This document shows positions 33,618 to 62,112 of a stretch of 64,000 bases of DNA, piece by piece (the stretch's first letter is position 1; the number at the start of each line of letters is the position of its first letter). Where the stretch lies: the IMG/VR virus record IMGVR_UViG_3300025133_000032, one strand, 5' to 3'. Source of the stretch: a virus. The notes below the pieces were generated by a model. The model had not been told where the DNA came from and made no database searches. It worked only from the letters and a program-made list of their open reading frames with translations. The position numbers were made by a program, and so were the translations under genes.

Positions 33618-33941
33618 TCAGGCGTCGGCGGGTGAATTCTGGCCTGTATCCTGATCATCAGATACAGTATCATTGGCAGCATGAGCCATGATGTTCGAGA
33701 CCTGCAATATTGCACTGTGCGCATCATCTACACGCTTGACAACAAATCTAATCTCTTCGCTATCGGCGGCTACAGGCATCTCAAGAACATCATAAACTGA
33801 GTTATACACATCATCTAAAATTCTTAATGCATCTTCTGTAGCATCATTAAACTTAAAAATTCTTTTTGCAAAAACGAAGTTATACCTAACTGAGATTAGG
33901 AATAGCACCAGAATTACGCCGAATGCAATCCAACCAGTCAT
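33618..33941 (-). CDS. Membrane-anchored hypothetical protein
   Basis: N-terminal hydrophobic helix WIAFGVILVLFLISV followed by a helical soluble part. Confidence 0.6.
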   Translation of the reverse strand: MTGWIAFGVILVLFLISVRYNFVFAKRIFKFNDATEDALRILDDVYNSVYDVLEMPVAADSEEIRFVVKRVDDAHSAILQVSNIMAHAANDTVSDDQDTGQNSPADA

Positions 33942-35113
33942 TGTATATTCTCTTCAAAAAATGCATCGTATAAATTAGAGATAGCGCTGAAAGAGAACTT
34001 GGCTTTGATATCTTCCGCCAAATCTTCTGCCCATTTAAAAGGTACATCAGGCTTCTCTTTAAATTTTCTCAATTTGCGCTTAGCAGATTTCTGATTAACT
34101 TCAGCCCATTTTGATCCATTTACAAAAATCCTACCATCTACCCTTGATGGATGAATCTCTTTTAATTCGAAGTCTAACTTTATAAATTTACCCAAATTCA
34201 TAAAGTCAAGGTGGCCTGACCAATTCGTCGCGATGACAGTTAAACCCGATGCTGCAGCCTCCAGTAATGGTAAACCGAAACCTTCCCCTCGTGTCATACT
34301 CAAAAATGCATGCATTTTAGGGTGTCTGTACAGGCCTGCAATCTCTTTATCATTTAATGTCCCATGAACCAAGTGTACCTTAGGATACTCACCGGTTCTT
34401 ACTTGCTGTAGTACGCTTTTTAATAAGTTCGTCGTAATCTGTCTATCAATTTTTGTATCTCGCCCATTATTCGTTTTTAACACAAGCCCGACAGATTTGT
34501 TTCCCTTAAATTCTTCGCAGAACAACTTGATCGTATGAAATATACTTTTTCTATCGTTATCAGCGTTTTGACCGGTCGTTTGACCAACCAACAAAAAATT
34601 GAAATCTGTATCTAGTTCTAAGTCAATGCTAGCGTCTTCATCAAAAATGCTGTCAATAAATGACTCTGGAATTACGTGTATGGGTGTTGTGATTTCTTTG
34701 CCAGTTGATTGCGACGTTTTTACAAGAACGTCTTTCGTAAAGCTTGATGGTACGATAACGTGATCCATCATATTAACACTGTCTATCCAAGCTGGATTGC
34801 AAACATCAGTTTCGACGGCAGCCGTTACGCCTACATTAACACGCGCCAGCTTGTAATTCCACTCATTCGGAAGTTGTACCTGCACAGACATATCATACGT
34901 CTCATTTTCTGCAGGGCTTGCTTTCTTCATCAACTTACCAATGAGACCATCTTTTAAGTCACTGTCTAGATACCATGGTGTCGCGCCCCACTGTACAGGT
35001 TCAACAAACAATTCTACATCATCTCTACCAAGAAGCCATCTAGCAATTTGTCTAGAATGAACGCCATACCCACTTTGGCTTAATACTGGTGCTCTTAGAA
35101 TAACTTTTTTCAT
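33938..35113 (-). CDS. Glycosyltransferase, GT4 family
   Basis: SGYG motif and RGEGFGLPLLEAAASG (EX7E). Confidence 0.9.
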   Translation of the reverse strand: MKKVILRAPVLSQSGYGVHSRQIARWLLGRDDVELFVEPVQWGATPWYLDSDLKDGLIGKLMKKASPAENETYDMSVQVQLPNEWNYKLARVNVGVTAAVETDVCNPAWIDSVNMMDHVIVPSSFTKDVLVKTSQSTGKEITTPIHVIPESFIDSIFDEDASIDLELDTDFNFLLVGQTTGQNADNDRKSIFHTIKLFCEEFKGNKSVGLVLKTNNGRDTKIDRQITTNLLKSVLQQVRTGEYPKVHLVHGTLNDKEIAGLYRHPKMHAFLSMTRGEGFGLPLLEAAASGLTVIATNWSGHLDFMNLGKFIKLDFELKEIHPSRVDGRIFVNGSKWAEVNQKSAKRKLRKFKEKPDVPFKWAEDLAEDIKAKFSFSAISNLYDAFFEENIQ

Positions 35114-36375
35114 AAAACCTTATGCTCCCATGGAGAGTAAATTTCTTCCCTGTTATTTTCCCATTTATCGATTGTTGCGCTAAGTGTTTTATGCCAGTCA
35201 GAAACCGTCGTCTTCAAATCAAACTCTGAGTGTACATACTTTCTTGCTTTCTTGCCCAGGCGTTCTCGCTCATCAGGGCCCTTTTCGTACATTTCTAGCA
35301 ATGCGTCAGAAACAGCTTCATTTGTGCAATAATCTTCGTAAATGTACGGAACCATCTGTGATCCGACCAAAGAACGTTGAGTTACATCAAGTGCAATACC
35401 ATTCTCAGTATCATCTCGATAATCAACAACCTGCCTAGTTAGACCGCCTGTTTTTACAGCAATAATGGGCTTACCACATTGCATAGATTCCAATGTAGAT
35501 AGCCCAAAACCTTCAGCAGATGAAATATTAAGACAACAGTCAGATATATTATGTAATATATTCATTTGCTCGAAAGATAGTCTCTCTTTAGAAAAAAACA
35601 CACTTTCATTTATATCAAGCATCTCTGACGTCTTTAGCAAATTTGAGCCTTGGTCATCCAGTGGGTCGGTATGCATCACCATTGTTGCATTCCTGTGACC
35701 ATGCTTTAGCTCTAGTTTATCAAGAAAAAGCTTCCATGAGACTAAAACATCATTTGGCCGCTTCCTCTTCGCGTTCCTGTTTACCCATAATACAGTAAAT
35801 GCATCAGCATTTTTCTTTCCCAACAGGTTAATCTTGTTTTCCCTGATTACGCCAGCGGGTAATACGTTGAATAACTCTTTCGGAAGAGCATGTGGTATAA
35901 AGTTTGTCTTTTTTGGGAAATGCTCTTTTACCATATTATATGTCAAATGTGAATGGCAATTTACTAAGTCGGTAGACTCATACAGTACCTTATTATACGC
36001 TGGCCATGGGCCGTTATCCCAAACATGCCAATAAGCTATTGGGCAAATTTGATGAATTTCTTCTTCCATCTCCCAGACCCAAATAAAGAATCTAGGATCT
36101 GTAAATAAGAATAATACATCAGGCTTCTCAGTCGCTAGAGCTAATCTAAGCATATCCCTATTACCAAAGCCGTCGATCGGTTTGATAATAAAATCATCGC
36201 TTACCTTTACTACGTCATAATTTGAATGTTTGACAGCAGCGCCGAAACACCTAAATGAATATTCGCCAGTTTCTAAAAGACCATTGATCAGGTAGCGAGA
36301 TTGCACGCCGACGCCCGAGGTAGATAACGGGTGGTCCGACAGCACTAAAACCTTTTTCTTTTTTCTAGTGTTCAT
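35110..36375 (-). CDS. Glycosyltransferase, GT4 family
   Basis: NRNAKRK and SAEGFGLSTLESMQCG (EX7E). Confidence 0.9.
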   Translation of the reverse strand: MNTRKKKKVLVLSDHPLSTSGVGVQSRYLINGLLETGEYSFRCFGAAVKHSNYDVVKVSDDFIIKPIDGFGNRDMLRLALATEKPDVLFLFTDPRFFIWVWEMEEEIHQICPIAYWHVWDNGPWPAYNKVLYESTDLVNCHSHLTYNMVKEHFPKKTNFIPHALPKELFNVLPAGVIRENKINLLGKKNADAFTVLWVNRNAKRKRPNDVLVSWKLFLDKLELKHGHRNATMVMHTDPLDDQGSNLLKTSEMLDINESVFFSKERLSFEQMNILHNISDCCLNISSAEGFGLSTLESMQCGKPIIAVKTGGLTRQVVDYRDDTENGIALDVTQRSLVGSQMVPYIYEDYCTNEAVSDALLEMYEKGPDERERLGKKARKYVHSEFDLKTTVSDWHKTLSATIDKWENNREEIYSPWEHKVL

Positions 36376-36417: not shown

Positions 36418-36963
36418 TTAAGCTGTAGCAGATTCCATCGTCTCAAGATCAATAAACGTTATTGTCGTAGGCACTTTAACAGGCAAAAAAATGTAAAGGT
36501 ACCCAAGGTCTTTTAAAGCCTGCGAAAATATTCTTTCCTGGTAGTCTTTCATGAAATCGGTGATAAGCTCAGTTGCTATACATGACACGTCAACTTTTAC
36601 GACAACAACCTTGCTTATATCTTCATTAGACTCATTTTCAAATTCATTCATGTTAGGATTATAACTTGCTTTGTTTTGTTGTTTACTTCCAAAGCGAATT
36701 ATAATTTCATCATCATCGACATACCACCTGTAGTCCGTATATGCCATATCATGTGCCCCAATGTCACGCCACTCAGCAGTCTCGCCTGATTCATTATCCC
36801 ATCTTTCATCACCTGGAAGAACTTCTTCTCCACTGTTAAGTCTATAATATCCTTCTGGGATTGGGGGCGATGAGTGACATGCTCTGCAGGGTAGTATGTG
36901 TTTACCTGATCCAAAATCTATGATAGTAGGTTCTTTTTCACAGTAATAACAAATTGATATCAT
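36418..36963 (-). CDS. Hypothetical protein with N-terminal CxxC...CxxC zinc finger
   Basis: CYYC...CRAC, then PEGYYRL..GE....GD. Confidence 0.55.
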   Translation of the reverse strand: MISICYYCEKEPTIIDFGSGKHILPCRACHSSPPIPEGYYRLNSGEEVLPGDERWDNESGETAEWRDIGAHDMAYTDYRWYVDDDEIIIRFGSKQQNKASYNPNMNEFENESNEDISKVVVVKVDVSCIATELITDFMKDYQERIFSQALKDLGYLYIFLPVKVPTTITFIDLETMESATA

Positions 36964-36982: not shown

Positions 36983-37660
36983 TTAACAAAATGTATCACT
37001 AAATTGATATAGCTCGTTTTGGCTGTCGACTTGAGTAACATTTGCAGTGCATCTAACATCGCCGAATAATAATACTTCATCTTGGCCAATATCGAATAGC
37101 ATCGGAACCTCTTTCCAATTTAAATAAAATCCGTTATTTTGTATTGGCGCAGAAAACACTACCACCCAAGCAGGGTAATCCCACTCATCTTCGTCTTTAT
37201 ACCCAGATGGATTATAGTATTCCGAATGAAAATTGCTATGCAGCATTGCAAGATCACCAATTTTTTTATATGATGTAGTCCAAGATGAAACATCTTCCGT
37301 TTGTGACATTCCGCCGCCGCCACCTGCTTTATAGTTAAACGTTTGGTGGCCGGCGTGGAGCTTAAGCTTTTCTAATTCTTCCAATTTCGTAATAAGTATT
37401 ACTCGGTATGCAGTTTTAAACTCTTGTGCCGGCTTGAGAACATTAGGATAATCATCAGCCATATCACGTATTAAAGCTATTGTCTCTTTTGATATGCCCC
37501 CGCCTCCATCTACGTAACGCTCCAGCTGATGTGATGCCCTTCTCTCTGATGGTACATCTAATTCACCAGTGCCCCTTTCTTGACCTAAGGCATGCTTTTC
37601 CCACTCTGGTTCGGCGGCATCTTCTTTAAGAAATACTCTAATAAATTCTTGTAATAACAT
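36983..37660 (-). CDS. Putative ADP-ribosyltransferase (R-S-E clade) with a capsid-targeting-like leader
   Basis: AYRV (R), VSSWTTS (S) and GQDEVLL (QxE) occur in the correct order; leader MLLQEFIRVFLKE. Confidence 0.65.
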   Translation of the reverse strand: MLLQEFIRVFLKEDAAEPEWEKHALGQERGTGELDVPSERRASHQLERYVDGGGGISKETIALIRDMADDYPNVLKPAQEFKTAYRVILITKLEELEKLKLHAGHQTFNYKAGGGGGMSQTEDVSSWTTSYKKIGDLAMLHSNFHSEYYNPSGYKDEDEWDYPAWVVVFSAPIQNNGFYLNWKEVPMLFDIGQDEVLLFGDVRCTANVTQVDSQNELYQFSDTFC

Positions 37661-37677: not shown

Positions 37678-38565
37678 TCACATGCTATTTTTGCAATGCT
37701 CCGTATTTTCAAAATCACAAAACCTGCATGAATCCCTATTTTTCAAAAAGAACCCTTTCTTAACAGCCTTCGCATGATTCTTAATAATATTTAATCCTTT
37801 AGCTTCAGCTTTTGGACCTACTGAAACTGGCACTAATTGCACTGCCGGTGATCCTATCTTTGCATCTCTCTTAAGCAAAGCAAAAGCACACCTAATATCT
37901 TTTAGAGGAATATTATGCTTTTTTGCCCAAAAGCTCTTATACAAAATCAATTGCAGCTGTACTTTAAAATCTTGCTTTTTATGACGTGTCCATCCCCAAC
38001 CGCATGTTTTCCAGTCAATAATCCAGTAAATTACCTTACCATTCTTCTTCATGACCTTAAAGACTGCATCAATAAAACCTTTCAATGATATAGGTAATCC
38101 TTCGATGGGTTCGTATAACCTTTCTTCAGCACCAAAGCACTCCCAACCAGGAAATTCTTTATTTAGGAATTTTGGAATGCTGTTAAGGATATTGTCTGCT
38201 TTTTTGAGCCAATCATCTACATTACCATATCCCCCTGGAGACCAATCAGGAAAGGGCCCATTCATAAATGCTTCATGATTATCTTTCCAGTCTTTACGAA
38301 TAAAGTCAAATGCTATCTGTTTATTCATTGTTCCTTTAGAGATGAAATATTCATTTGCATTATGACATGCAGTCCCTAACCCAACATGGGGTGTAGTTGA
38401 AAATGTACCAAGCTTTTCGATATATAAGAGTTTGTGCCTCCAACTACACTCAAGCCAGTTGGCGAGCTCAGAATACGAGACGTGGGGTTTACCAGTAGGC
38501 CAATCTACCTCTGTGGATTTAAAGTCTACTGGTAAACCTGTACTGGGATCAATAATCGCTGACAT
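37678..38565 (-). CDS. PD-(D/E)XK exonuclease (RecB/AddB/Cas4-like) with an Fe-S Cys cluster
   Basis: SYSEL..W.EC, GFID, IIDWKT, QLILY and CRFC.....HC. Confidence 0.9.
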   Translation of the reverse strand: MSAIIDPSTGLPVDFKSTEVDWPTGKPHVSYSELANWLECSWRHKLLYIEKLGTFSTTPHVGLGTACHNANEYFISKGTMNKQIAFDFIRKDWKDNHEAFMNGPFPDWSPGGYGNVDDWLKKADNILNSIPKFLNKEFPGWECFGAEERLYEPIEGLPISLKGFIDAVFKVMKKNGKVIYWIIDWKTCGWGWTRHKKQDFKVQLQLILYKSFWAKKHNIPLKDIRCAFALLKRDAKIGSPAVQLVPVSVGPKAEAKGLNIIKNHAKAVKKGFFLKNRDSCRFCDFENTEHCKNSM

Positions 38566-38631: not shown

Positions 38632-39048
38632 CTATTTTAAATCTAAAACTTCTACTGTGCCTGTTTGCAGTGTTCCAAATTCATCATTTACGTTCAATTC
38701 GACTATTGCTCCATTCTGAGTAGAACACAATACATCTAAACTACTATCATCGAATGAAAACTTCCCAGCAATAACCCCCGTAGATAGCTGGCCAGAACCA
38801 GCAGATGTATACTGACTGCAGTTCTTAAAAATCTTTAAAACAGCTGGCGAAGCATAGATCGTACCCTGCGCAAAATTTTTAGTGAGTTGCCTCTGTACAT
38901 CGTAAATAATTTCTTGTAATGTTGATAACCAGTGTTCTGGTTTACCAGTCCAGCTTGGTCCTCGAGCTGGACTGACTGGTGCTGTTCGTATACCTGTCAG
39001 TTTATTAACAAACTGCCCAGGGGTACTTGACCAATAATATTTTACCAT
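38632..39048 (-). CDS. Stand-alone fragment resembling the axial (A) domain of gp23-family major capsid protein
   Basis: WLSTLQEIIYDVQRQL...IYASPAVLKIF...GVIAGKF aligns by eye with T4 gp23 FKALLFQIDKEAVEI...IIASRNVVNVL...GVLGGKY (recalled sequence). Confidence 0.6.
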   Translation of the reverse strand: MVKYYWSSTPGQFVNKLTGIRTAPVSPARGPSWTGKPEHWLSTLQEIIYDVQRQLTKNFAQGTIYASPAVLKIFKNCSQYTSAGSGQLSTGVIAGKFSFDDSSLDVLCSTQNGAIVELNVNDEFGTLQTGTVEVLDLK

Positions 39049-39049: not shown

Positions 39050-39810
39050 TTACTTTTTCTCCTTACTCATTTCTTTAAGAACCTCTGCGAGCATTTCATG
39101 CTTTTCATCATAAACGTCAAGGTGGTTATCACCCAATACAAACTTTGCCTTAATATTTCGTGTCATTAATTTCTCCTCAAATGAAAATATCATTTGAAAT
39201 AATCCAACACCTCTATGTGTTGTGTGATGCGCACCCGCATCATATTCATAATTTACCAACTTAAATGGTTCTAGAGTGCTGAAGTCTTTTAGGAATTCTG
39301 GCGTCTCTTCGAATCTTCGAATCTTTTTGCGTTATTTGTGTCCATTAGATGAAAGATCGAACAATGATTTTCATCTAACTCTGCCAATCCTGGATACACA
39401 GGCAGATCAAGAAAAACACCAAGCTTAGCAACTTTCCTAAAGTTCTTCAACACAAGCTCTGTATCATGCATATGCTCGATTGCATCGACACAATATATAA
39501 CATCAAAGCTGTCTTCTTCGTAAATGTCTGTCAAGAGATGAGCATCGCCTTGCAATATCAGAGGTGATTTATTAGAAATGTCAAGCCCAGAAGCAACGAA
39601 GCCCCTATCAATAAAGCTCTGGACCTCAGAATCATCTCTACACCCTACGCATAAAACAGATTCAAACTTTGGTAATGACGAAATCATTAAGTCAATCTCT
39701 TTTTCTCGCTTTGGTGCACGCTTTTTTGTCATGGCACGACGCCTAGGAAGACTATGCTTTTTTGCTTGTCCAGCTACCTGTAGATCAGACTCGATTTCGT
39801 ATCTTCTCAT
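39050..39810 (-). pseudogene. Class I SAM methyltransferase split by an 8-bp tandem duplication (track ORFs 39289-39810 and 39050-39259)
   Basis: Motifs VLCVGCR, GLDIS, GDAH and FDVIYC..AIEH. Removing one copy of (CTTCGAAT)2 at ~39307-39322 gives ...KRFEETPEFLKDFSTLEPFKLVNYEY, in frame with 39050-39259. Confidence 0.65.
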
Positions 39811-40439
39811 ATCAGTTCCCTAAAGTCATTTATCAAAATTGCGTTATTATCTCTAAACCATGACGTATTTTCTTCTTGAGAGGCACATTGAACAAAAACA
39901 AAATTATTAACGTGATCAATAGATGATGAATAATCTAGTTTAGAATCGCCGATTGATAACCTTTTAGCGCCCGGAGACTTGTGTTTAATCATAAAAAAAT
40001 GATCAAACTTCGATTTTTCGCCGTCATAAATTGCTTCAAACTCGCCAAGCAGACTATGCTTCTTGAGTAATGCAGCTATCTCAGACTCTTTGCCTCCAGA
40101 CACAATGAATTTCCGCTTTCCTTTTATTTTCTTCAAAAAATTGGCTGCGCCAGGTATAAATTCTGCATTCATAAAACTTTCGCTTATTATACTTTCATAT
40201 TTTTTAATGCATTTTTCTACAAAAGTATATCTACATTCTGGTTCAATGACATCAGCTAATACATCAAATTTTATACGTCGAGTCATTTCATTATATGTAT
40301 TTAACTTCTTCATGTAGCGGCGCAAGTATCTTTGTGGACATACTTCTTTTATAACACACTCAAAAGCGTCATTTTTGATCTTATTTGTGTCAAAAATTGT
40401 ACCATCAAAATCAAAAATGTACAAATCATAATCTAGCAT
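39807..40439 (-). CDS. HAD-superfamily phosphatase
   Basis: IFDFDGT (motif I), IVSG, K and IGDS..D. Confidence 0.9.
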   Translation of the reverse strand: MLDYDLYIFDFDGTIFDTNKIKNDAFECVIKEVCPQRYLRRYMKKLNTYNEMTRRIKFDVLADVIEPECRYTFVEKCIKKYESIISESFMNAEFIPGAANFLKKIKGKRKFIVSGGKESEIAALLKKHSLLGEFEAIYDGEKSKFDHFFMIKHKSPGAKRLSIGDSKLDYSSSIDHVNNFVFVQCASQEENTSWFRDNNAILINDFRELI

Positions 40440-42180
40440 TTAAAATACCTTCGACAATTGGAATGTCTTCTGGATAATCAACAGCATGCGTAAAAACATT
40501 TTCTTCAATAACAACTTTAACTGGTATGCCTAATTCAAGAAAACGTAATATTTCTATATCTTCCTGTGCTTCAAGGCGTGTTTTTGACATAATACTTGCA
40601 TACCGCTCAAGTTGTATATTAGTGAAAGCGTATACACACACTTGTTTCATCGTTAGCAAAGTACCAACGTTATCATTTATTATACCCTTTTTGTTTCCTG
40701 GGATTGGAGAACGTGATGCATAGAGCAATTCATTTTCGTTATTTAAAACCATCTTGGGCATCTTGGGGTCTGAAGGCGTTTGATTGTTTGGATCTAGTTT
40801 AGATGCGCAATTAATTACATGTCCAGGAAATTGTGTCTTAGCAGCCAACACCCTAGTTATCAGCCCAGGTTCTAACAGCGGTTCATCGCCTTGTACACTT
40901 ATGATAGTGCTAGCGTTTATTTTCTTCGCAGCTTCTGCAACCCTATCCGTTCCTGTCATACAATTCTTACTCGTCAAAATCACATTAAATTTTCTTTCTT
41001 CGACATGTTCCCTAATTTCTTCTGAGTCTGTAGCGATATAAACATTTTCTTTGCCCACTGCCTTAGAAACAAGCTCAGCAACCCTGATTATCATTCGCGT
41101 GCCGTTAATCTTAACGAGTGGCTTTCCTGGAAATCTTGTTGACTCAAATCTTGCAGGAATGATAACAGCAACTTCCTTCTTATTATTGCAGTCAATTAAT
41201 TCTTGCAAATATGCTGGATCGAATGATACTTTTCTTTCATCAACCCTGCTTAAAATTTTGCATGACGTAAAATCGTCAAAACCCCGTTGCTTTAACTTCA
41301 TACAATAAAATGGGTGGATGTCATTTAAGCCTGACAGTTGGTATGCTTGGCTCCATCCCCAGTCGTATTTTTGTTTTAGCGACTCAAAATCATGAATCGT
41401 ATGTTCCAAATATGCTATGTCAGTATCAGGTCTTAAACTTTTTACTAGTGGTAGGAATTGCTCTAAACGTAAATTTCCTACGCCGCGCCCCATCCCTGCA
41501 ATCGTGCCATCTATATATCTGATATTAGGTGTACTCAAAGACTGTATCGCTGTTGCCAATGATGTGCCTAAATTATCATGTAAGTGCAAACCCATGGGAC
41601 TATACTTACCAAAATCATTCATAATCTCTGTTAAACCGGCTGTGCTTAATGACCCATATGAGTCAGCTAGATATAGTACGTCAGCATAACTTCGACATGA
41701 AAATGCGTCTTGAACAACACGTAACTCCTTACTAGTCAACTGTGATATACACATCACATTTAATGCAACGTTATACCCTTTTCTCTTTAGTAAAAAGCAA
41801 ACTTTAGCAGCCGTCTCGATGTCCTTATATCTTGTGGCTACCCTACACCAACTGAATATTGAGCATTTTTCGTCGGGTACAAGAGCATCAATTTGTGTTA
41901 TTTCATGATAAGAAGAGAAATCTTTTAAATCAATCATGAAGCAATACTTTGAGTGTTCAAGTTTCGGTAGATAAGCTAAATCTTTTTCTTCGCACCTTCT
42001 AAAGATACCGCCTTCTAATCTTGACTTATATCCAAGTTCTATAATATCTACTTTTGCTTCGTCAAGTGACGTTACTAGCCGCTCTGTTATATCTCTATCG
42101 AAATTCCAACCAGTGTAGTATCCACCATCTCTCAATGTGCAATCTAAAATTTTTAATCCGAGTTGTGCTAATCGTCCCAT
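40426..42180 (-). CDS. Fusion: DRE-TIM pyruvate aldolase (4-hydroxy-2-oxovalerate aldolase-like) + CMP-Kdo synthetase (KdsB-like)
   Basis: Aldolase half: LDCTLRDGGY, ADSYG, GLHLHDNLG, GMGRGVGN. KdsB half: IIPARFESTRFPGKPL, GTDRVAEA, QGDEPL, LE..E..E.LRFLE.G, AVD.PED. Confidence 0.9.
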   Translation of the reverse strand: MGRLAQLGLKILDCTLRDGGYYTGWNFDRDITERLVTSLDEAKVDIIELGYKSRLEGGIFRRCEEKDLAYLPKLEHSKYCFMIDLKDFSSYHEITQIDALVPDEKCSIFSWCRVATRYKDIETAAKVCFLLKRKGYNVALNVMCISQLTSKELRVVQDAFSCRSYADVLYLADSYGSLSTAGLTEIMNDFGKYSPMGLHLHDNLGTSLATAIQSLSTPNIRYIDGTIAGMGRGVGNLRLEQFLPLVKSLRPDTDIAYLEHTIHDFESLKQKYDWGWSQAYQLSGLNDIHPFYCMKLKQRGFDDFTSCKILSRVDERKVSFDPAYLQELIDCNNKKEVAVIIPARFESTRFPGKPLVKINGTRMIIRVAELVSKAVGKENVYIATDSEEIREHVEERKFNVILTSKNCMTGTDRVAEAAKKINASTIISVQGDEPLLEPGLITRVLAAKTQFPGHVINCASKLDPNNQTPSDPKMPKMVLNNENELLYASRSPIPGNKKGIINDNVGTLLTMKQVCVYAFTNIQLERYASIMSKTRLEAQEDIEILRFLELGIPVKVVIEENVFTHAVDYPEDIPIVEGILNARL

Positions 42181-50326: not shown

Positions 50327-50553
50327 AAAGGCTCCTTCATAGATGCGACAACATTTACACGCCGGAAATCTGTGCGGTGCGGTCTGTGTGTTTTGATATC
50401 GTACACTGTGATCATGCATTCATTCATAACCCACCCGTGATGATCATCAGTCTGTACAACTATGCCGATGGTATTGTTGCCCCAAACGTGAAATGATACT
50501 AGATCAAGCAATTTTATTGAAGATTTCTTATAAACCACTCCAGCCAAGCTCAT
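50323..50553 (-). CDS. Small SH3/KOW-like hypothetical protein (paralog family)
   Basis: LDLVSF...IGIVVQTDDHHGWVMNECMITVYDIKT...VVASM. Confidence 0.6.
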   Translation of the reverse strand: MSLAGVVYKKSSIKLLDLVSFHVWGNNTIGIVVQTDDHHGWVMNECMITVYDIKTHRPHRTDFRRVNVVASMKEPL

Positions 50554-54078: not shown

Positions 54079-54961
54079 TTTCTAAAACCCTCGTGTATTT
54101 AACAGCAGTATTTCTAATATCAAGTTCTGATTCTTCTAAGTTTGGTGATTTTCTTGAAAAATCCATTTGAGGCGGGTTATATAAATTGCAAGGCTTAAAA
54201 TCCCATGGCGCTTCGTTTATCACAACAGAATTCTTGCCCGCAATTTCTCTTGTACCACCAGATGAGGAACAAATAATCTGGCATCCTGCGGCTCTGGCAT
54301 CAACGACGCAATTTGGACAATGATCTAACCAGGCCAGATGCAAGAAATAATCAGTTGCTTTGTATAAAGATACTAACGTCTTATAGTCTAAATCACCAGC
54401 ATAAAATATTCTTGGATCAACCACTTTGTAGTCTGGGTTTGCGCCGGCAATGATTAAGCAATCTTTATGGCCAGCATGCTCTTTAAAATATCTCACGTTT
54501 TCGCTTAGCCGCTTATGCGGCCTCCATGAAGCTGCACATGACCACACTTTATCAACGGACTGTAGCGTAGGAGCATACATTGGATCAATGCTATCGATGT
54601 AGTCAATATTGGTACCATTACGTATAATTTCCGACGATTCATGAGGCCCAAAAAACGTTTCTACTAACTTTTTATCAAAACTAGATTGAAAGACTACCGA
54701 TTTTGCTTTATTATACGTATCTTTTATTTTTAGATTCTGTGTTTTCCAATCTTGTGTGTTGTTAAACCAAATCCCATCCAAACGTTGGACCATCGGCGAT
54801 TTAGTAGAAAGGGCTTGAATAAACGACAGTTGAACATCTGGTGATTCATCTTCGTTTACTATAATGTGCCCATTTTTTGATAGCTGGGTTGCTAGCTTAT
54901 GGCCGAACGCATTTGGTCCAGTTCTTGATAAAAAGTTTACGTTATCGAATAGAATTCGCAT
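54065..54961 (-). CDS. Glycosyltransferase, GT4-like
   Basis: QRLDG, WRPHKR and DHCPNCVVDARAAG (D-for-E variant of EX7E). Confidence 0.8.
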   Translation of the reverse strand: MRILFDNVNFLSRTGPNAFGHKLATQLSKNGHIIVNEDESPDVQLSFIQALSTKSPMVQRLDGIWFNNTQDWKTQNLKIKDTYNKAKSVVFQSSFDKKLVETFFGPHESSEIIRNGTNIDYIDSIDPMYAPTLQSVDKVWSCAASWRPHKRLSENVRYFKEHAGHKDCLIIAGANPDYKVVDPRIFYAGDLDYKTLVSLYKATDYFLHLAWLDHCPNCVVDARAAGCQIICSSSGGTREIAGKNSVVINEAPWDFKPCNLYNPPQMDFSRKSPNLEESELDIRNTAVKYTRVLENAKA

Positions 54962-55751
54962 TTAACCAATCCCTCACATTTTTTTCCCATATAATTGCAT
55001 TTGAATCTTTACCAAAGCATCTTGTAAATGATCTGCCTATATGTGTAAAAACAGGTTCACCGAATAATTGGTATTCTTCTCCCCGTGTATCTTGTTTCAT
55101 GAAAACTGCGCTAGATGATTTCGCTCTATGCAAATGCATATGCTTTCCTGCTAAACCTGCTTGTATAATTTTTCTTGGAAGCTCTGAGCCTGTATCTAGC
55201 AATATTTGCTCGGCGACTTCTCTCTTGTACCACGCGTTGTTAGTCTCTGTAATAGTTACCATACCCTCAGGTTTAAAACTTACATTTAAACTTTTGATAA
55301 TGTCTCTTCTGAACATTGCACATATCACGTTGGGGAATTCAGAGTACTTCTTTCCGTCATACTCGGCGCCTACAATTACAACATCACCAACTAGTGTCTG
55401 TAACATTTTATTGTCCCAATCATTTTGTAGAAAAGCAACATCACAGTCCATTAAAATGCAAATATCCTCTGTCATTCGCTGGAATACTTCATCTAGTGAT
55501 AGGCCATGATGCATGCTACCATATTCACTCTTGCTTTTTAATATAAAAGTAGAATTATCTCTATAGAGTCCTGCTTGTTTTAAAATGTCTTTGGTTTCTT
55601 TTTCATCGACTTCAAAAGAATCTACGCCAATTATAAAAGTGAATCTATTAAAGTCATTTACTGTTCGCTTTAGTGTTTCTATCAGAAAGCGAAGGTATGC
55701 ATTTCCGTTACGCGATAGTGCTATACCTATTTCTATTTTTTTCATATTCAT
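54942..55751 (-). CDS. Glycosyltransferase, GT-A/GT2-like
   Basis: GSMHHG..LD, ILMDCD (DxD) and LDTG. Confidence 0.7.
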   Translation of the reverse strand: MNMKKIEIGIALSRNGNAYLRFLIETLKRTVNDFNRFTFIIGVDSFEVDEKETKDILKQAGLYRDNSTFILKSKSEYGSMHHGLSLDEVFQRMTEDICILMDCDVAFLQNDWDNKMLQTLVGDVVIVGAEYDGKKYSEFPNVICAMFRRDIIKSLNVSFKPEGMVTITETNNAWYKREVAEQILLDTGSELPRKIIQAGLAGKHMHLHRAKSSSAVFMKQDTRGEEYQLFGEPVFTHIGRSFTRCFGKDSNAIIWEKNVRDWLNANSIR

Positions 55752-56265
55752 CCCTAAGCACTGACATCAGTATATAGTCGATAAACTTACCGTCCCTATA
55801 AATTGCCTGACGCTCAATACCTTCTTGGATAAACCCGAGCTTTTCGTAAATTCGTTTTGCTCCAAGATTTGTTTCAAGAACTTTTAATGAAATCCTATTC
55901 ATTTCAAGCTTATCAAAGAAGAATGTCAACAAATATTTATATACCTTTGTCGCAATGCCCTGTCGGCGGTGAGCCGAGGCGATATCGAGGCCAATTTGTA
56001 CACTCGAATTCTTATAGTCTTTGTTGTCAATACGAACAACACCCACTGGAACGTCCCCAGCTGGTGCCTTGCATGTAATGACCCATCTAGATGACGTCGG
56101 AGATATACATAGTTTTTTGAACCACATGTGTTGTTGCACCTGACTTACTGGCTCGTTATTAGTAAGCATACAAAGTGTCGATGGTTCATTATGTAGTAAA
56201 CGGGCCCACTCTAAGTCCTTTTTTTCGAGTACTCGAAGGCTTATTCCATCATTGAGAGTATGCAT
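55708..56265 (-). CDS. GNAT N-acetyltransferase (RimL/PseH-like), probably acting on an amino sugar
   Basis: HRRQGIA and NLGAKRIYEKLGF..EG..R; directly downstream of DegT. Confidence 0.9.
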   Translation of the reverse strand: MHTLNDGISLRVLEKKDLEWARLLHNEPSTLCMLTNNEPVSQVQQHMWFKKLCISPTSSRWVITCKAPAGDVPVGVVRIDNKDYKNSSVQIGLDIASAHRRQGIATKVYKYLLTFFFDKLEMNRISLKVLETNLGAKRIYEKLGFIQEGIERQAIYRDGKFIDYILMSVLRDEYEKNRNRYSTIA

Positions 56266-57355
56266 TTACTGCCTCAATGACCCTTGTTACATCATCATCA
56301 CTTAAATGGGCGCCCACAGGTATATTTGTCATATGTGCACAAAATGCTGATACGCCGGGTAAACTATCATTACCTTTGCAGTGACTTCTAAAAACCGTGT
56401 ACTTATCATTCCTCATATGAACCTGATCTACTTGTATATCCCGCTCATTCATAAATGTTTTAAAAGCTTTAGGGTCTTCAACATGGATAGTAAATAACCA
56501 ATCTGCTGATCTTGTGCCAAATTCTTTGCTGCGGCGAACCTGGTATTCTGTCTTTAGCTCACGACGATAACGGTTAGCATTGTTGACATGGCGCGACAAA
56601 ATCATGTTTATATTCTTTAGTTGCTCAAGACCTACTGCTGCATTTACATTATTCATATGAAACTTATAACCAGCAAGAGAGATATCTTGTTCCCACTTTG
56701 ACCCTGGGTATTTTCTGTCTAAACCAAACCACCTAAGCAATTTTACTTTTTCGAAATCAAGCTTGTTTCTACAGGCTAGTGCACCACCGTCGATTGTTGT
56801 TAAGTGCTTTATTGCCTGAAAGGAATAACATGTGTAGTCCGCCCAGTGTGAAATATCAACCCCTTTGTATTTCGCACAAAGGGCGTGCGCTGCGTCAGCA
56901 ACGAGTGGCACATTCGCTTTCCCACAAATCTCCTTCAGGCCTGACAAGCAAACTGGTTCACCGGCCCAATGAACGCAGACAACGGCTTTCACTTTCCCTT
57001 TGTGTTTCTTTAATAATTCCTCAACGGACCGGCAGCTAATATTGCCAGTTTGTTTACTGACATCCGCCCATGCTAATTTTGCTCCGAGGTTATGGAGTGG
57101 AACGTTTGTTGCCATACATGTCATAGGCGTTGTGATAACTACATCACCCTGTTGTACATCACATAATTTATATGCTAATGTAAGCGCAGACGTGCAGCTG
57201 TTTGTTAATGCAGTATATGGATTATCAATTAATTTGGAAAACTTTTCCTCAAATTCATCAGATAAAGCACCCTCAGTTAACATCCCAGAATCAAAAACCT
57301 TTTGCAGTGTCACACCCAAGTTTTTAGGAATATTAGGCTTAAATAAAGGAATCAT
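56249..57355 (-). CDS. DegT/DnrJ/EryC1/StrS sugar aminotransferase
   Basis: NSCTSAL, DAAHA and SFQAIKHLTTIDGG (PLP lysine). Confidence 0.92.
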   Translation of the reverse strand: MIPLFKPNIPKNLGVTLQKVFDSGMLTEGALSDEFEEKFSKLIDNPYTALTNSCTSALTLAYKLCDVQQGDVVITTPMTCMATNVPLHNLGAKLAWADVSKQTGNISCRSVEELLKKHKGKVKAVVCVHWAGEPVCLSGLKEICGKANVPLVADAAHALCAKYKGVDISHWADYTCYSFQAIKHLTTIDGGALACRNKLDFEKVKLLRWFGLDRKYPGSKWEQDISLAGYKFHMNNVNAAVGLEQLKNINMILSRHVNNANRYRRELKTEYQVRRSKEFGTRSADWLFTIHVEDPKAFKTFMNERDIQVDQVHMRNDKYTVFRSHCKGNDSLPGVSAFCAHMTNIPVGAHLSDDDVTRVIEAVNAYSQ

Positions 57356-57361
57356 TTTTTA

Positions 57362-58330
57362 TTATATGTCATCACAGTAATATTGTATTAAATTCTTTAA
57401 TTGTTTGTCGAATGTATGACGTGGAGCCCAGCCTAATGCTTTAGTCTTTGAACAATCTAAAGCATATCTCAAATCACACCCAGAACGGTCATTACTTGAG
57501 TCAACGACATCATCATACTTTAGCTTTCTAAACTTGCAGACCTTTTCAACAATTTCTTTCACGCTAAATTCTTCAGGTGAAGCTATATGATAAGACTCAT
57601 TGCAGTTACCCTCGCTTATTATCTTGTAAAGAGCCTCTACATTATCATCAACATGGATCCAGTTTCTGATGTATGAACCATCACCATGAACTAGCGCTTT
57701 TTTGCCAGTTACTAACTTCGTGATCACGTTAGGAATCAATTTTTCGACGTGTTGCCGAGGCCCATAATTATTTGTTGTTCTTGTTATAATATATGGGAGA
57801 CCGTACGTTCTGCCCCAAGACACGACAAGCTGTTCGGCCATCGATTTTGTTGCTGCATACGGGTTGCTTGGCATATGCCTATCATCTTCTTTGAAAAACC
57901 CATGTAAGATATCCCCGAATACTTCATCAGTTGATATCTGGATGAATAGTGGGGGTTTATATGACCAAGACGACATCATATTCTTTATTTTTTTGTTCTT
58001 TATTATCTCCAAAAGATTATGAACACCTAAAACATTCGAATTTAAAAATACGTCATTGCCAGAAATAGAGTTATCCACATGAGACTCAGCAGCAAAATTT
58101 ACTATAACATCACAATGAGGAATATCATCTAATTTGCTAATGTCTGCTTTCTTATATGCATACTCGCCTGTTGAACAAACAAGCTTCATCCCAGTATTTG
58201 CTGCATATGTCTCTTTGTCTATGTTTATTACCTTATGTCCATGTCTCAAGCATAGATCAACGAAATGTGAGCCAATGAAACCAAGGCCTCCAGTACATAG
58301 AATAACTTTCTTTCTTTCTAGCCTGTTCAT
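57362..58330 (-). CDS. rfbB: dTDP-glucose 4,6-dehydratase
   Basis: TGGLGFIGS, NFAAESHVDNSI, ISTDEV, PSNPYAATK, NNYGPRQ..EKLIP and R.W.HV.D. Confidence 0.92.
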   Translation of the reverse strand: MNRLERKKVILCTGGLGFIGSHFVDLCLRHGHKVINIDKETYAANTGMKLVCSTGEYAYKKADISKLDDIPHCDVIVNFAAESHVDNSISGNDVFLNSNVLGVHNLLEIIKNKKIKNMMSSWSYKPPLFIQISTDEVFGDILHGFFKEDDRHMPSNPYAATKSMAEQLVVSWGRTYGLPYIITRTTNNYGPRQHVEKLIPNVITKLVTGKKALVHGDGSYIRNWIHVDDNVEALYKIISEGNCNESYHIASPEEFSVKEIVEKVCKFRKLKYDDVVDSSNDRSGCDLRYALDCSKTKALGWAPRHTFDKQLKNLIQYYCDDI

Positions 58331-58740
58331 TTACTTAAATTATACTCTTCCCAGTTATCAAATTTAACAGAATCATCAGTTTTTTCATGCCAGGCGATAT
58401 TAGGCATACAAAGAATAATACCTTCAGCAGACATACATTTATACTGCGCTGGTACACCCGCAATAATCTTTGCTAATATAGACTTCCCAGCTCTGTCTCT
58501 TAGCATTATCTCTTCTTTTATGCCATTAACTTCAGTGACAAGCATAACTACACCAGAAATCGCAGTGACAAGACTATCTCTTTTAGTATGTACGATGGGG
58601 CCTTTGACAGAATGAAGTGACATTGAGGTTGTATATACCATCTTTACTTCATGATTCTCATGCCAAGCGTCGTAATCTTTAAAGATGGGCGTCATATAAC
58701 CCTCTTTTGTTCTAAACTTTTGTATGACATGATTATTCAT
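58327..58740 (-). CDS. Cupin, RmlC/FdtA-like NDP-keto-sugar isomerase/epimerase
   Basis: R..EG.M.P, MVY.T, VKGPIVH and a GVP strand; upstream of rfbB. Confidence 0.6.
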   Translation of the reverse strand: MNNHVIQKFRTKEGYMTPIFKDYDAWHENHEVKMVYTTSMSLHSVKGPIVHTKRDSLVTAISGVVMLVTEVNGIKEEIMLRDRAGKSILAKIIAGVPAQYKCMSAEGIILCMPNIAWHEKTDDSVKFDNWEEYNLSK

Positions 58741-59422
58741 GCAAGAACCCGCGTGACCTCACAAAATTAATCGTCTGTAACTGCTTTGCCTCGGCCCAGT
58801 CTCTATCAGAGATTGAGCATGATTCAATGTTATAAAGATAGCATACTTCAGATACATACTTCTTTGATGAAGCGACAGTGAGTAAAGGTAACATTAACGC
58901 TTGATCATATCCCCTTTTAAACCAATCACCAACGTTATCCTGAAAATTTGACTCTGGGATTTGATCTAGTAGTGATGCTTTGAAAGTTCTCAGATGTGAT
59001 GACACCCAGGGAGTTTGGTATGGATCACGAGGAAGTAAGTCTCTTGATATGTTTAACCCGTTTATATCCCACTTATGTGCTGTCCAAACTACATCATGAC
59101 CGGCTTCATATTCATTCATCAAAATATCAACAGTATTTACATTACATAATGAGTCATCGCCATCAATTACAGCGATAATATCATCTTTTGATGAATGAGC
59201 CTTAACAGCACTAATGATGTTTTTCAATGCGTATTGTCTTTCGTCATTTCTTATCAAATGAAATTTTAATGTACAATAATCAGGTAATACAAGGGGTGAC
59301 TCTGAGCAATCATCAATAACAACAGCACGCCAATCTTGCGACTGCTGCGAAATAATTGAGTATGTTAATGCTTCTATATTCTCTTGTGCGTTATAGCTCG
59401 GTATAATAAATAAAACTGTCAC
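58733..59422 (-). CDS. Glycosyltransferase, GT2 family
   Basis: IIPSYNA, VIDDCS, IDGDD and SHLRTF. Confidence 0.9.
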   Translation of the reverse strand: MTVLFIIPSYNAQENIEALTYSIISQQSQDWRAVVIDDCSESPLVLPDYCTLKFHLIRNDERQYALKNIISAVKAHSSKDDIIAVIDGDDSLCNVNTVDILMNEYEAGHDVVWTAHKWDINGLNISRDLLPRDPYQTPWVSSHLRTFKASLLDQIPESNFQDNVGDWFKRGYDQALMLPLLTVASSKKYVSEVCYLYNIESCSISDRDWAEAKQLQTINFVRSRGFLHE

Positions 59423-60151
59423 TTACCACCCCACAAGATCAGAAATATCATAATCAGGGTGCTTTATTAAAACTTGGCCATAATCAATTTCTTCATCAGG
59501 GATTCGGCGATCGTCAAAAAATATTCGGCGATCACTGATTATAAGCTCTTTTTCAAGAGGGATTTCATCGATAAGCTTTTTACACTCGATATCTTTAGTC
59601 TCAGCCTCATTATAATCATCGAAGAGCACAAACTTTGTGTATATGTCTTTAACAGATTCCCAGTCATGTTTTACGGCATCATATCTATGATCACCATCGA
59701 TATAAACCATGTCAATACTCTCAGGAATGTGTTGCAAAGCTTCAGTTACAGTACCTTTCATTAGCATTAAGTGATCGAACCAATCTTTTGGAAAAATCTT
59801 TGTTAAATTTTCTATATGAGCTTGGTCGACGTTCGGATCCACTGAGTACACTCTTGCATCGGACCATCCCATATCGGACATAGCTTTTGCAGCACAAAAT
59901 GCACCGTAGCCTCGTCCGAAGCCAATTTCAAAAAATGATTTTATTTCGAAACGCTTGACCATGTGATAGATTAGTAAACCACGCTCATAATTTGGTCTAA
60001 AAAAACAGCCTGCAGTTTTATATAGCTCGCTACCTGGGCTTCTATTTTTCTTTGCCGTAAACTCACCGATGTAATCAAAATCACCAAGCGTGATATCGCA
60101 TACAGGGAAGTCAATTTCTTCTAGCTTTTGTTTAATGCTTGTTGTTTTCAT
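59423..60151 (-). CDS. SAM methyltransferase (Methyltransf_24-like, O-methyltransferase)
   Basis: FEIGFGRGY, SVD, DMVYIDGDH.Y..V..D and FDDY. Confidence 0.85.
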   Translation of the reverse strand: MKTTSIKQKLEEIDFPVCDITLGDFDYIGEFTAKKNRSPGSELYKTAGCFFRPNYERGLLIYHMVKRFEIKSFFEIGFGRGYGAFCAAKAMSDMGWSDARVYSVDPNVDQAHIENLTKIFPKDWFDHLMLMKGTVTEALQHIPESIDMVYIDGDHRYDAVKHDWESVKDIYTKFVLFDDYNEAETKDIECKKLIDEIPLEKELIISDRRIFFDDRRIPDEEIDYGQVLIKHPDYDISDLVGW

Positions 60152-62112
60152 TACTTGTTTCTCTCTATCCAGGTAGTCATATTAGCAGGTGATTTAATTT
60201 TAACACACAAATGTTTCGTAGGTTTGCTAAAATCGATTTTGTTATGAAAAACCCAACCGCCCATCTTAGTTTTTAATCGTAATGATAAGTCTTTGATGTC
60301 TGTGTCAGTAACATCTTTCCAAGCTTTATCAAAAAACATATTCTGTTCTGGAGTGTCATCTTGTTTAACATCAAAAAGACTTTCCCAATGCTTACTCCAA
60401 TACAGCTTGTATGTTTTTATTTTTCTGTTAAGGTTAAACCATGAATAATGATGGACACTGGGCATCGCATCTATAACTTGATCAAACCACCCATTTAAAC
60501 TGCTCAAGGCACCAGCATTCGTATGAGACGCCTGCTGTGCTTGATATACGTCAGGCGTTACAAAGTTTATGCATGGGATAGGCTCGTAATTATCAAACCT
60601 AATATAGTCACACCCATCAGACCCCGGCGCAGAGTATAATTTTCCATTTTCATCGAATTTTCTAAGCTTGGCAGGTATTCCATGAGTTATATAAGGCTTA
60701 TTTCTACTCAGGCGCCACTTCCACAAATTAACATCACATCTAACTTTTTCTTCACTTCCCCAGTATTCAATCATCGGGAGAGCTAATAAATCAGCGCTCT
60801 TAGGTATCTCATGAATTATTGCTTTGATTTTTGTATAGTCATCTTCATGAACTATCTCGTCAGAATCCATCTGCCAGCAAAAATCTTTCGTGCATAATGA
60901 TCTAGCAAGAGCTTTTTGTTGGCCATCATGAACAGCAAATCTTTTTTCTAGCCAATCTCTTTTTTGCTGATGCACTATTAATTTTGGTTCTGTTTTAGCA
61001 AGGGCTTCTAAGGCTTCCATAGTGCCATCTGTTGAGCCGCCGTCAACTACGATCACTTCATCACAAAACCCAAGCATTGATTCGATGCTTTCCTGAAAAG
61101 GATAATCTTGTGTTATGCAGTCTTTGGTGGTCGTATATCCTGAAATTGTTGGTTCAAATGACATGTCAAACCTTGTGCCATTCCAGAATCTTTCTTTTGA
61201 TAAATAGAGATAGGATTCTGTGTCAAGCATCTCATCAGTATCAAACCAAATCTCATCTTTGTGCTGGACGTTTTTATTTAAATGAAGCTTGCAGCCCAGG
61301 AGTTTAGCTTCGATTACCAGTCTTGGACAAGTGTCCATCCCTGAGGGCATAAACACTAAACCTTGTGCTGCTGCTAGTTTGGCTAGCATTTCATCATAAC
61401 TAACATTCCATACAACATCATACTCTAGATTATTTTTAATGCAAAAATCTTCGGCAGCCTTGGTACCTTTAATCCAAGAAGGAGAGCCTAATACAATCCA
61501 ACGATCTGTTTTTATAGTTTTCTCTCTTAACGTCTTTATTTTTGCGAAAGTAAGATCATCAAACACAGATGAAAGAACAGTATTTTTTCCATTCTTCAAA
61601 AATGGAAACTTACTGTGGTATAACTCCATCTGACCTTCAGACATCCACCATAATGAGGCGGCAGCATGCATAAATGCAGAAACCATCTTTCCGTTATTAG
61701 AATCTTCGCAATTACATGGTGCTTGTTCTATTTCTGCGTGCTTTTCTATTGATCTATATTTACAGTACTTATAATCATATTCTATAATAGAAAAATTTAT
61801 GTTTGCACAGATACTAGGAATTAAGTTTATATCTAGATTAGAATAATTTCCAAAGATCCAGAAAAGTTTATGCCCTGATTCTAATAACTTAAGACTAACA
61901 TCACTAGATTTTAACTTAAAAACATTAAATGGGCTAGATGTTATTAAAGCTTCACTAGTAAGTTCTGCACCACCAGAATAATCATCTATAAAATTATCAG
62001 AGACAAAGACTACATCAATATTATTAGGTATAGTAATAGAGTTAAAGAGTGAAGCCCCTAAATTAATAAAAGACATTGAATATTTCCTTGTTTCCGGACA
62101 AACCAGATCCAT
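60151..62112 (-). CDS. Bifunctional glycosyltransferase (GT4-like N-terminal + GT2 C-terminal)
   Basis: N-terminal GGAEL...KG...DTCPRLVIEAKLLG; C-terminal DEVIVVDGGSTDGT...QMDSDE. Confidence 0.85.
   Translation of the reverse strand: MDLVCPETRKYSMSFINLGASLFNSITIPNNIDVVFVSDNFIDDYSGGAELTSEALITSSPFNVFKLKSSDVSLKLLESGHKLFWIFGNYSNLDINLIPSICANINFSIIEYDYKYCKYRSIEKHAEIEQAPCNCEDSNNGKMVSAFMHAAASLWWMSEGQMELYHSKFPFLKNGKNTVLSSVFDDLTFAKIKTLREKTIKTDRWIVLGSPSWIKGTKAAEDFCIKNNLEYDVVWNVSYDEMLAKLAAAQGLVFMPSGMDTCPRLVIEAKLLGCKLHLNKNVQHKDEIWFDTDEMLDTESYLYLSKERFWNGTRFDMSFEPTISGYTTTKDCITQDYPFQESIESMLGFCDEVIVVDGGSTDGTMEALEALAKTEPKLIVHQQKRDWLEKRFAVHDGQQKALARSLCTKDFCWQMDSDEIVHEDDYTKIKAIIHEIPKSADLLALPMIEYWGSEEKVRCDVNLWKWRLSRNKPYITHGIPAKLRKFDENGKLYSAPGSDGCDYIRFDNYEPIPCINFVTPDVYQAQQASHTNAGALSSLNGWFDQVIDAMPSVHHYSWFNLNRKIKTYKLYWSKHWESLFDVKQDDTPEQNMFFDKAWKDVTDTDIKDLSLRLKTKMGGWVFHNKIDFSKPTKHLCVKIKSPANMTTWIERNK

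Follow-up and report, generated by a model that had tools for sequence, protein, structure and literature searches.

A stretch of 64,000 nucleotides (the window; virus record IMGVR_UViG_3300025133_000032), part of a 308,593-bp metagenomic ENA contig (ERZ27249009 k141_306648) of an aquatic jumbo myovirus (placed via its PhoH protein), carries at 33938-62112 a glycan gene island that would, in our reading, glycosylate phage proteins, probably virion proteins. We give this reading a probability of about one half. A sequence-only reading had described the span as a phage-autonomous virion glycosylation system; that interpretation is plausible, somewhat strengthened and unproven. The window is a single co-directional block of genes on the minus strand, in which the island, baseplate and tail genes share the strand. 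In the order of transcription PhoH/PIN (62177-63484) is followed by the glycan span, and both lie upstream of the baseplate genes at 27912-30258, which encode a gp6-like wedge protein and gp25.

The glycan gene inventory of the span is confirmed, with Pfam and NCBIfam support for nearly every item listed earlier, and all genes from 33938 to 62112 lie on the minus strand, which bears out the claimed co-orientation with the structural genes. About 11 glycosyltransferase (GT) genes had been counted. Eleven candidates are indeed present, of which only seven score above the Pfam cut-offs, three are weak or below them and one is TagF/KpsS/polysialyltransferase-like:

33938-35113, minus strand: GT4, above the Pfam cut-off
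35110-36375, minus strand: GT4, above the Pfam cut-off
42946-43635, minus strand: GT29-type sialyltransferase-like protein, anchor-less (Pfam PF00777, 67.3 bits against a cut-off of 23)
43632-44282, minus strand: GT2, above the Pfam cut-off
46638-47711, minus strand: TagF/KpsS/polysialyltransferase-like GT-B (from cluster neighbours)
51268-52176, minus strand: GT4-like, above the Pfam cut-off
52160-53119, minus strand: GT4-like, weak (weak or below the Pfam cut-off)
54065-54961, minus strand: GT4-like (weak or below the Pfam cut-off)
54942-55751, minus strand: GT2-like, weak (weak or below the Pfam cut-off)
58733-59422, minus strand: GT2, above the Pfam cut-off, semi-conserved in relatives (28-54% identity)
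60151-62112, minus strand: two-domain GT of 653 amino acids (aa), conserved boundary gene (Pfam GT2, above the cut-off)

The GT29-like protein (229 aa) shows all the sialylmotifs by which the family is judged (L, S, III and VS): ST3Gal1 (2wml) can be aligned to it through motifs L and S, the four phage homologues compared all keep the HY of motif III, and HxxxxE is present. It departs from the Golgi form of the family, with its N-terminal anchor, stem and disulfide-bonded lumenal domain, as motif L begins at residue 8 and there is no hydrophobic segment. The AlphaFold2 (AF2) model of the 653-aa GT (predicted local distance difference test score, pLDDT, 87.5) consists of an N-terminal Rossmann-type alpha/beta half, which is GT-B-like, and a C-terminal GT-A half; a DSDE motif lies in this C-terminal GT-A/GT2 half. 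Its Foldseek matches are SunS/ThuS, K4CP, RmlT, TarS and EXT1/2. The similarity to SunS/ThuS, which are peptide S-glycosyltransferases, was rejected as evidence for a protein acceptor because generic GT-A enzymes match too. A tblastn search with this protein against GenBank phages gave no match. For 46638-47711 an identity as NeuC epimerase was considered and rejected, the nearest clusters being TagF/KpsS/polysialyltransferase-like GT-B enzymes.

Donor-sugar and tailoring genes are interspersed with the GT genes:

42946-47711, minus strand: CMP-ulosonate module 1, including the TagF/KpsS/polysialyltransferase-like GT-B, GT2 and GT29-like genes
45901-46614, minus strand: short NeuB-like synthase
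45186-45944, minus strand: PseF/NeuA-like cytidylyltransferase
44282-45199, minus strand: D-2-hydroxyacid dehydrogenase
39289-42959, minus strand: CMP-ulosonate module 2
40426-42180, minus strand: HMGL-type aldolase fused to a KdsB-like cytidylyltransferase
39807-40439, minus strand: HAD phosphatase
39289-39810, minus strand: S-adenosylmethionine (SAM) methyltransferase
42168-42959, minus strand: P4H-type 2-oxoglutarate (2OG)-Fe(II) oxygenase (weak in Pfam, with Atlas search support)
53116-54078, minus strand: GDP-mannose 4,6-dehydratase (Gmd; NCBIfam gmd, 383 bits)
55708-58740, minus strand: module for a sugar of the 3-acetamido-3,6-dideoxyhexose type (Pfam)
58327-58740, minus strand: FdtA-like cupin
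57362-58330, minus strand: dTDP-glucose 4,6-dehydratase-like (RmlB-like; NCBIfam dTDP_gluc_dehyt, 316 bits, below the equivalog cut-off)
56249-57355, minus strand: DegT aminotransferase
55708-56265, minus strand: GNAT acetyltransferase
50550-51266, minus strand: DUF2334 deacetylase-like (Pfam)
59423-60151, minus strand: Methyltransf_24 (TylF-like) SAM methyltransferase, probable sugar O-methyltransferase (Pfam, 54.9 bits)
48105-48749, minus strand: weak methyltransferase

Both ulosonic-acid activation modules named in the sequence-only reading were recovered by profile searches, as were Gmd and the RmlB-like/DegT/GNAT set (Pfam, NCBIfam), to which an FdtA-like member is now added. The proposed deacetylase belongs to the DUF2334 family (Pfam). 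The 2OG oxygenase is weak in Pfam and has the support of the Atlas search, and of three methyltransferases claimed two are solid and the third is weak. The aldolase-cytidylyltransferase fusion has more than 1,200 metagenomic family members; all three contexts sampled (L037-L039) are phage contigs resembling that of Flavobacterium phage immuto, and the enzyme is 43-44% identical between the window and this immuto-like lineage. No full-length copy was found among GenBank phages. The fusion may be a phage-borne route to a CMP-ulosonic acid of unestablished type and, together with the triad of NeuB-like synthase, cytidylyltransferase and 2-hydroxyacid dehydrogenase and with the GT29-like protein, points to uncharacterised ulosonic acids.

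Island enzymes had been described as soluble, and no convincing membrane helix was found in any island open reading frame (ORF) by a Kyte-Doolittle hydropathy scan (threshold 1.6); only the FdtA-like cupin (58327-58740) exceeds the threshold, and that marginally, at 1.61. The sole clear membrane helix near the island belongs to a 107-aa ORF just outside it (33618-33941). No window ORF has more than one hydrophobic segment, nor has any ORF in four islands. For comparison of islands three long relatives were used (G001-G003), of which G002 is a complete 293-kb genome with direct terminal repeats, collinear with the window; in our own ORF call of G002 no polytopic membrane protein was found except a tape-measure-like ORF of 1585 aa. 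The claimed lack of Wzx, Wzy, ABC exporter and initiating transferase is borne out in the window, where no island ORF has a Pfam match to an initiating phosphoglycosyl transferase. It extends to five relatives (one of them complete), in which searches for initiating transferases (Bac_transf, PF02397; WecA-type, PF00953), Wzx (PF01943), Wzy_C (PF04932) and ABC-2 (PF01061) were negative, with matches in the control genomes. The island has the clustered NDP-sugar pathways with several GT2/GT4 genes that are seen in O-antigen and capsule loci, and fails as a member of the Wzx/Wzy- or ABC-dependent class. The word 'autonomous' holds for the transfer steps and does not hold for sugar activation, as no hexose-1-phosphate nucleotidyltransferase was found in the window or in the complete G002 (one occurs, in the island of G003 only); dTDP-Glc, GDP-Man and UDP-sugars must therefore come from the host.

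IMG/VR phage contigs, the longest of 293 kb, hold 25 relatives of the 653-aa GT (45-60% identity). In each of G001-G003 all Pfam-detectable GT2/GT4 genes fall in one block of 25-35 kb, which ends towards PhoH in a GT of about 650 aa and towards the baseplate genes in PD-(D/E)XK-GT4-GT4. The boundary GT4 pair of the window (33938-36375; 421 and 391 aa) is 65% and 54% identical to its counterparts in the complete relative and comprises the best-conserved window proteins in that comparison; the 653-aa GT reaches 57% and the baseplate proteins 31-49%. The interior is mosaic, with 20 of the 35 window ORFs, including both ulosonate modules, lacking a homologue in the islands of the three relatives. 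Immuto-like contigs (three contexts) carry the fusion, PD-(D/E)XK-GT-GT, a MptE/Maf-like gene, a GT29-like gene and 2-Hacid_dh/CTP_transf_3/NeuB. In immuto itself (NC_055915, gp183-gp169) and in Microcystis phage Mel-JY01 the PD-(D/E)XK-GT-GT triad is followed by GTs, aminotransferases and methyltransferases; the annotated glycan genes of immuto are gp181-gp169. PD-(D/E)XK-GT4-GT4 thus occurs in phages of Flavobacterium and Microcystis, and GT4 alone in a Rhodothermus phage. The conserved boundaries, and the modules that recur in the immuto-like branch, indicate that the glycosylation system is old in the phage lineage, with a conserved core and exchangeable cassettes, and many of the island families look phage-resident rather than recently acquired from hosts. 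Since the core GTs are common to phages of hosts from three phyla, a phage-encoded acceptor is favoured as the simpler explanation; core GT conservation equal to or above that of the structural proteins likewise favours one.

On this basis the island would be a two-tier, virus-encoded cytoplasmic glycosylation system with phage-encoded acceptors, most likely virion surface proteins. Phage enzymes would convert dTDP-Glc, GDP-Man and UDP-sugars of the host into rare donors, predicted to be a GDP-6-deoxyhexose, a dTDP-3-acetamido-3,6-dideoxyhexose and a pair of ulosonic acids activated with CMP. The lineage-wide core (the GT4 pair and the 653-aa GT) would build a conserved inner glycan on a conserved phage acceptor, and a horizontally exchanged cassette (about eight further GTs, the methyltransferases, the deacetylase-like protein and the oxygenase) would add a strain-specific outer part, probably capped with ulosonic acid by the GT29-type enzyme. 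The order of the steps, the identities of the sugars and, most of all, the acceptor are what we infer from the genes. Characterised Maf proteins move nonulosonic acids straight onto flagellin in the cytoplasm, and in the immuto-like relatives the MptE/Maf-like gene adjoins the CMP-ulosonate genes. In five tail or baseplate proteins of the window the motif [ST]G[ST] occurs 3-5 times as often as expected from composition-shuffled sequences (p <= 0.012; e.g., 17 against 3.8):

5260-7650, 8090-9316, 19408-22017, 22854-26348 and 26348-27901, minus strand: [ST]G[ST]-enriched tail/baseplate proteins

The motif is not enriched in the gp6-like, spike, 821-aa and 1339-aa proteins and is absent from the island enzymes. 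The enrichment, a weak hint, may reflect a glycosylation motif or a turn motif of fibre-type proteins.

A tentative extension, to which we would give somewhat less than even odds, is that the whole lineage of aquatic myoviruses, from the immuto-like phages of about 160 kb to the moraphages of about 300 kb, coats its virions with a virus-made glycan that has a conserved inner core and swapped, ulosonate-capped outer cassettes, as a viral counterpart to LPS core plus O-antigen, and is built wholly in the cytoplasm with the help of an anchor-less GT29 of eukaryote type and the hitherto uncharacterised aldolase::cytidylyltransferase fusion.

Several points weigh against a phage-made glycan on virion proteins. 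Such a glycan is here predicted from genes. No MptE/Maf-like protein was found in the window, either as a PF01973 match or as a BLAST homologue, nor was a BLAST homologue found in G002, and [ST]G[ST] runs are common in fibre-like beta-structures. The solubility of the GTs does not discriminate, because pathways linked to undecaprenyl diphosphate (Und-PP) likewise use soluble or peripheral GT2 and GT4 enzymes, and initiating enzyme, flippase and ligase could all come from the host. The 107-aa membrane protein could anchor the GT4 pair at the membrane. The adjacency to the baseplate genes that had been pointed out is seen in the window and is not conserved in immuto or Mel-JY01. Co-orientation of the island with the structural genes is not the same as co-regulation, and late co-expression of the GT4 operon with them is not established, because the promoter-like element before the GT4 operon and two inner genes is TATAAT and that before gp25 is ATA[AG]TTA. 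Finally, the relatives encode a dCMP-hydroxymethylase-like enzyme, which keeps some probability on DNA as the acceptor in the window phage.

The main rival is remodelling of the host envelope, in which the phage GTs and sugar enzymes would act at the inner face of the membrane on undecaprenyl-linked intermediates of the host, to be finished by the host's own initiating transferase, flippase and ligase or polymerase; lipopolysaccharide (LPS), capsule or the host O-glycome would thereby be altered during a long infection, for instance with superinfection blocked or progeny kept from adsorbing to debris. The repertoire (Gmd, RmlB/FdtA/DegT/acetyltransferase, NeuB with a CMP-synthetase, a Kdo-type cytidylyltransferase, O-methyltransferases, GT2 and GT4) is that of O-antigen and capsule loci, the hypervariability between related phages mirrors that of such loci, the GT4 pair has a single-pass membrane protein coupled to it, and the host is the source of the primary NDP-hexoses. 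We nevertheless consider this explanation doubtful: genes for the carrier and export steps are absent from the window and the complete relative, many island families look resident in phages rather than newly taken from hosts, and core GTs kept across host phyla, above the structural genes, would be unexpected in enzymes that have to fit host-specific lipid-linked acceptors.

Improbable, in our estimate, is an acceptor of another kind, such as a soluble or secreted glycoconjugate, a glycolipid, or a phage or host protein outside the virion, serving for example as a decoy or a protective matrix. The sequence does not fix the acceptor, and the P4H-type oxygenase and the TagF/KpsS-like enzyme would suit hydroxyproline in proteins or phosphodiester-linked polymers; a secreted product, however, would have no export route, there is no precedent among tailed phages, and a core conserved throughout the lineage speaks for a role tied to the particle or to replication.

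DNA is an unlikely acceptor of the island glycan, the least probable of those weighed here. In T-even phages, and in the clusters that Pyle et al. describe, glycosylated hydroxymethylated pyrimidines serve to evade restriction, and island GTs might act in the same way on hydroxymethylated pyrimidines of the phage DNA. G001-G003 encode an enzyme of the thymidylate synthase (ThyS) fold whose best solved matches are the CMP/dCMP hydroxymethylases MilA and T4 gp42 and which has Asp at the cytosine-specificity position, where ThyA has a uracil-specifying Asn. All Pfam-detected GT2/GT4 genes of these genomes sit in the island, and phage GT-A/GT-B enzymes can write mono- to trisaccharides on 5-hydroxymethylcytosine (bioRxiv 10.1101/2023.12.21.572611). 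Between the hydroxymethylase gene and the island that holds all the GT2/GT4 genes, however, there are 110-140 kb; the gene sits in the replication region and in a module of its own, which comprises 5-hydroxymethyldeoxyuridine (5-hmdU)-DNA-kinase-like, inositol-1-P-synthase-like, FkbM methyltransferase and C5 DNA methylase genes in G002, and SDR epimerase, TK and dCMP deaminase genes in G001 and a TARA relative. The unassigned ORFs beside the hydroxymethylase of the relatives gave no sequence match in the PDB. The loci are as follows:

L031 1342-2187, L033 8302-15866, L032 7363-10699 and L059 6969-12009: DNA-modification loci of the relatives

The dCMP-hydroxymethylase-like enzyme and the neighbouring genes of the module indicate that the lineage probably has hypermodified cytosine in its DNA. 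The window itself has no ThyS or TET gene, and the arrangement that marks a DNA-hypermodification cluster, in which a GT and a ThyS-like or 5mYOX/TET gene stand no more than about 10 kb apart, is not found. A Tet_JBP search, with an uninformative control, gave no match. Virion DNA of immuto holds dA, dC, dT and fdPreQ1 only, as determined by liquid chromatography with ultraviolet and tandem mass spectrometric detection (LC-UV-MS/MS; 10.1101/2023.04.13.536721), despite a homologous GT core and sugar genes. Eleven GTs and two ulosonic acids are, moreover, far beyond any known DNA glycan. It is the separate, distant DNA-modification module of the relatives and the sugar-free DNA of immuto that disfavour DNA.

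If phage proteins are indeed the acceptors, the island would work like the virion glycosylation systems of giant viruses and mycobacteriophages. Among giant viruses, chlorovirus PBCV-1 has capsid glycans, Mimivirus and the Megavirinae have gene clusters for fibril glycans, and the clusters are clade-specific. The island resembles these systems in its viral pathways for rare sugars of bacterial type, its many soluble GTs (multi-domain enzymes included), its sugar methyltransferases, the lack of a lipid-carrier or export step and the variation of the cluster between related viruses; virus-encoded donor pathways thus go together with multiple soluble GTs that vary by clade. It differs in belonging to a tailed bacterial phage, in using primary NDP-hexoses that are not phage-made, so that the independence from host sugar activation that goes with the giant-virus type is lacking, and in that its acceptor is deduced from genes. 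Mycobacteriophage GTs glycosylate capsid and tail-tube subunits and thereby shield the particle (Freeman et al. 2023, as cited in PMC12619734). Common to both are phage-encoded GTs in the genome of a lytic cycle; as far as that account goes, the mycobacteriophages carry between two and four GTs and lack pathways for donor sugars, whereas the island combines 11 GT candidates with four donor pathways in a layout of conserved core and variable cassette. With bacterial O-antigen and capsule clusters the island shares enzyme families and hypervariability between strains, and unlike them it has no initiating transferase, flippase, polymerase/ligase or ABC exporter. With the sugar-hypermodification clusters of phage DNA (Pyle et al., 10.1101/2023.12.21.572611) it has in common GT-A/GT-B enzymes related to those of LPS and teichoic acid synthesis, and a dCMP-hydroxymethylase-like gene in the relatives, but in these the GTs lie more than 110 kb from the ThyS-like gene, the glycan repertoire is far larger and the DNA of immuto has no glycosylated base.

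Should the glycan be virion-borne, then, like giant viruses and mycobacteriophages, the tailed phages that infect abundant Bacteroidota of aquatic habitats would make a glycocalyx for their own particles. Its diversity would be O-antigen-like, with consequences for adsorption, for the survival and grazing of particles in water and for the evolution of phage 'serotypes'. The soluble minimal GT29, the widespread HMGL-aldolase::KdsB fusion and the conserved triad of NeuB-like synthase, cytidylyltransferase and 2-hydroxyacid dehydrogenase are of interest as enzymes in their own right. The question is open to bench testing because the cultured Flavobacterium phage immuto (host Flavobacterium sp. 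LMO8) carries the core.

The moraphages are a jumbo-phage lineage with 25 published genomes and with Flavobacteriia as predicted hosts (Perez-Hernandez et al. 2025, PMC12619734); their traits are a genome of 200-307 kb, an Hc1 histone-like gene, core GT orthogroups and the lack of a phage RNA polymerase. Four GT orthogroups belong to their core, for which possible roles were listed and left unresolved in that work (PMC12619734). The window phage shows moraphage-type features, namely its contig of 308,593 bp, an Hc1 gene (PF07432) just beyond PhoH on that contig and next to the island, the GT core and affinities to Flavobacterium phages. Moraphages and immuto together match it in a genome of about 307 kb, Hc1 next to the island, relatives of the Flavobacteriia type, the core GTs and PD-(D/E)XK-GT-GT synteny. 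The window phage and the moraphages are probably of the same lineage, with the same genes. Island genes are visible in published genomes already; the boundaries of the island, its ulosonate and GT29 modules and its variability are not described in PMC12619734. In the literature searched we found no description of a bounded variable island, of ulosonate or GT29 cassettes or of their distribution through the lineage, and no relevant paper on phage nonulosonic-acid pathways, phage GT29 or Mel-JY01.

The cultured relatives are remote ones: identity between the gp6-like protein and its counterparts in immuto, Mel-JY01 and an uncultured phage of 484 kb is about 29%, and megablast of the window against GenBank phages gave nothing except a 100-bp match in Gmd. 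The GC content is 35-43%, with an even composition over the window. Searches of the window for tRNAs and against Rfam gave no match, and with PHROGs most of the tail proteins and the orphan ORFs of the island stayed without a match.

The span 33938-62112 also includes ORFs without a glycan role (a nuclease, two orphans, a capsid-like fragment and small paralogues), and two further ORFs lie between it and the baseplate genes:

37678-38565, minus strand: PD-(D/E)XK nuclease, conserved
38632-39048, minus strand: putative capsid-like fragment, 138 aa (96 residues align at 33% identity with an ORF of 629 aa in G002, 178261-180150)
36983-37660 and 36418-36963, minus strand: orphan ORFs, not in G001-G003 (no Pfam or PHROG match)
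47702-50553, minus strand: 2.8-kb run mid-island of small paralogues (five or six ORFs, 66-126 aa each), no family match
33618-33941, minus strand: 107-aa protein with one N-terminal membrane helix, kept in relatives, outside the island
32788-33546, minus strand: 252-aa protein, probably a divergent factor of the sigma-70 family

The two orphans separate the GT4 pair from the PD-(D/E)XK nuclease. The start of the 107-aa ORF overlaps the stop of the second GT4 gene (ATGA), and the protein appears to be translationally coupled to the GT4 pair; it could alternatively be unrelated to the pair, e.g., holin-like. The 252-aa protein has no Pfam or PHROG match, and its position between the GT4 operon and the baseplate genes is kept in relatives. 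It is probably a divergent phage sigma factor, because the top 50 Foldseek matches of its AF2 model (pLDDT 69) are all sigma factors, though weak (E 0.014-0.4).

Within 25 nucleotides of a start, ATA[AG]TTA occurs four times in the window against 0.2 expected, and TATAAT seven times against 1.0 expected. The promoter-like elements precede the starts at 1930, 30258 and 37660 and those at 4056, 5227, 36375, 38565, 57355 and 58330; TATAAT stands 9-17 nucleotides before the GT4 operon and the PD-(D/E)XK, DegT and RmlB genes, and ATA[AG]TTA before gp25. Because the elements lie 9-17 nucleotides from starts and far exceed chance, leaderless transcripts and two promoter classes are suggested.

The small paralogues at 47702-50553 share a motif of the type 'DLV.F...G..GIVV.T...GW..NE.M.T.YD..T' and look like a possibly selfish gene family that interrupts the glycan operons.

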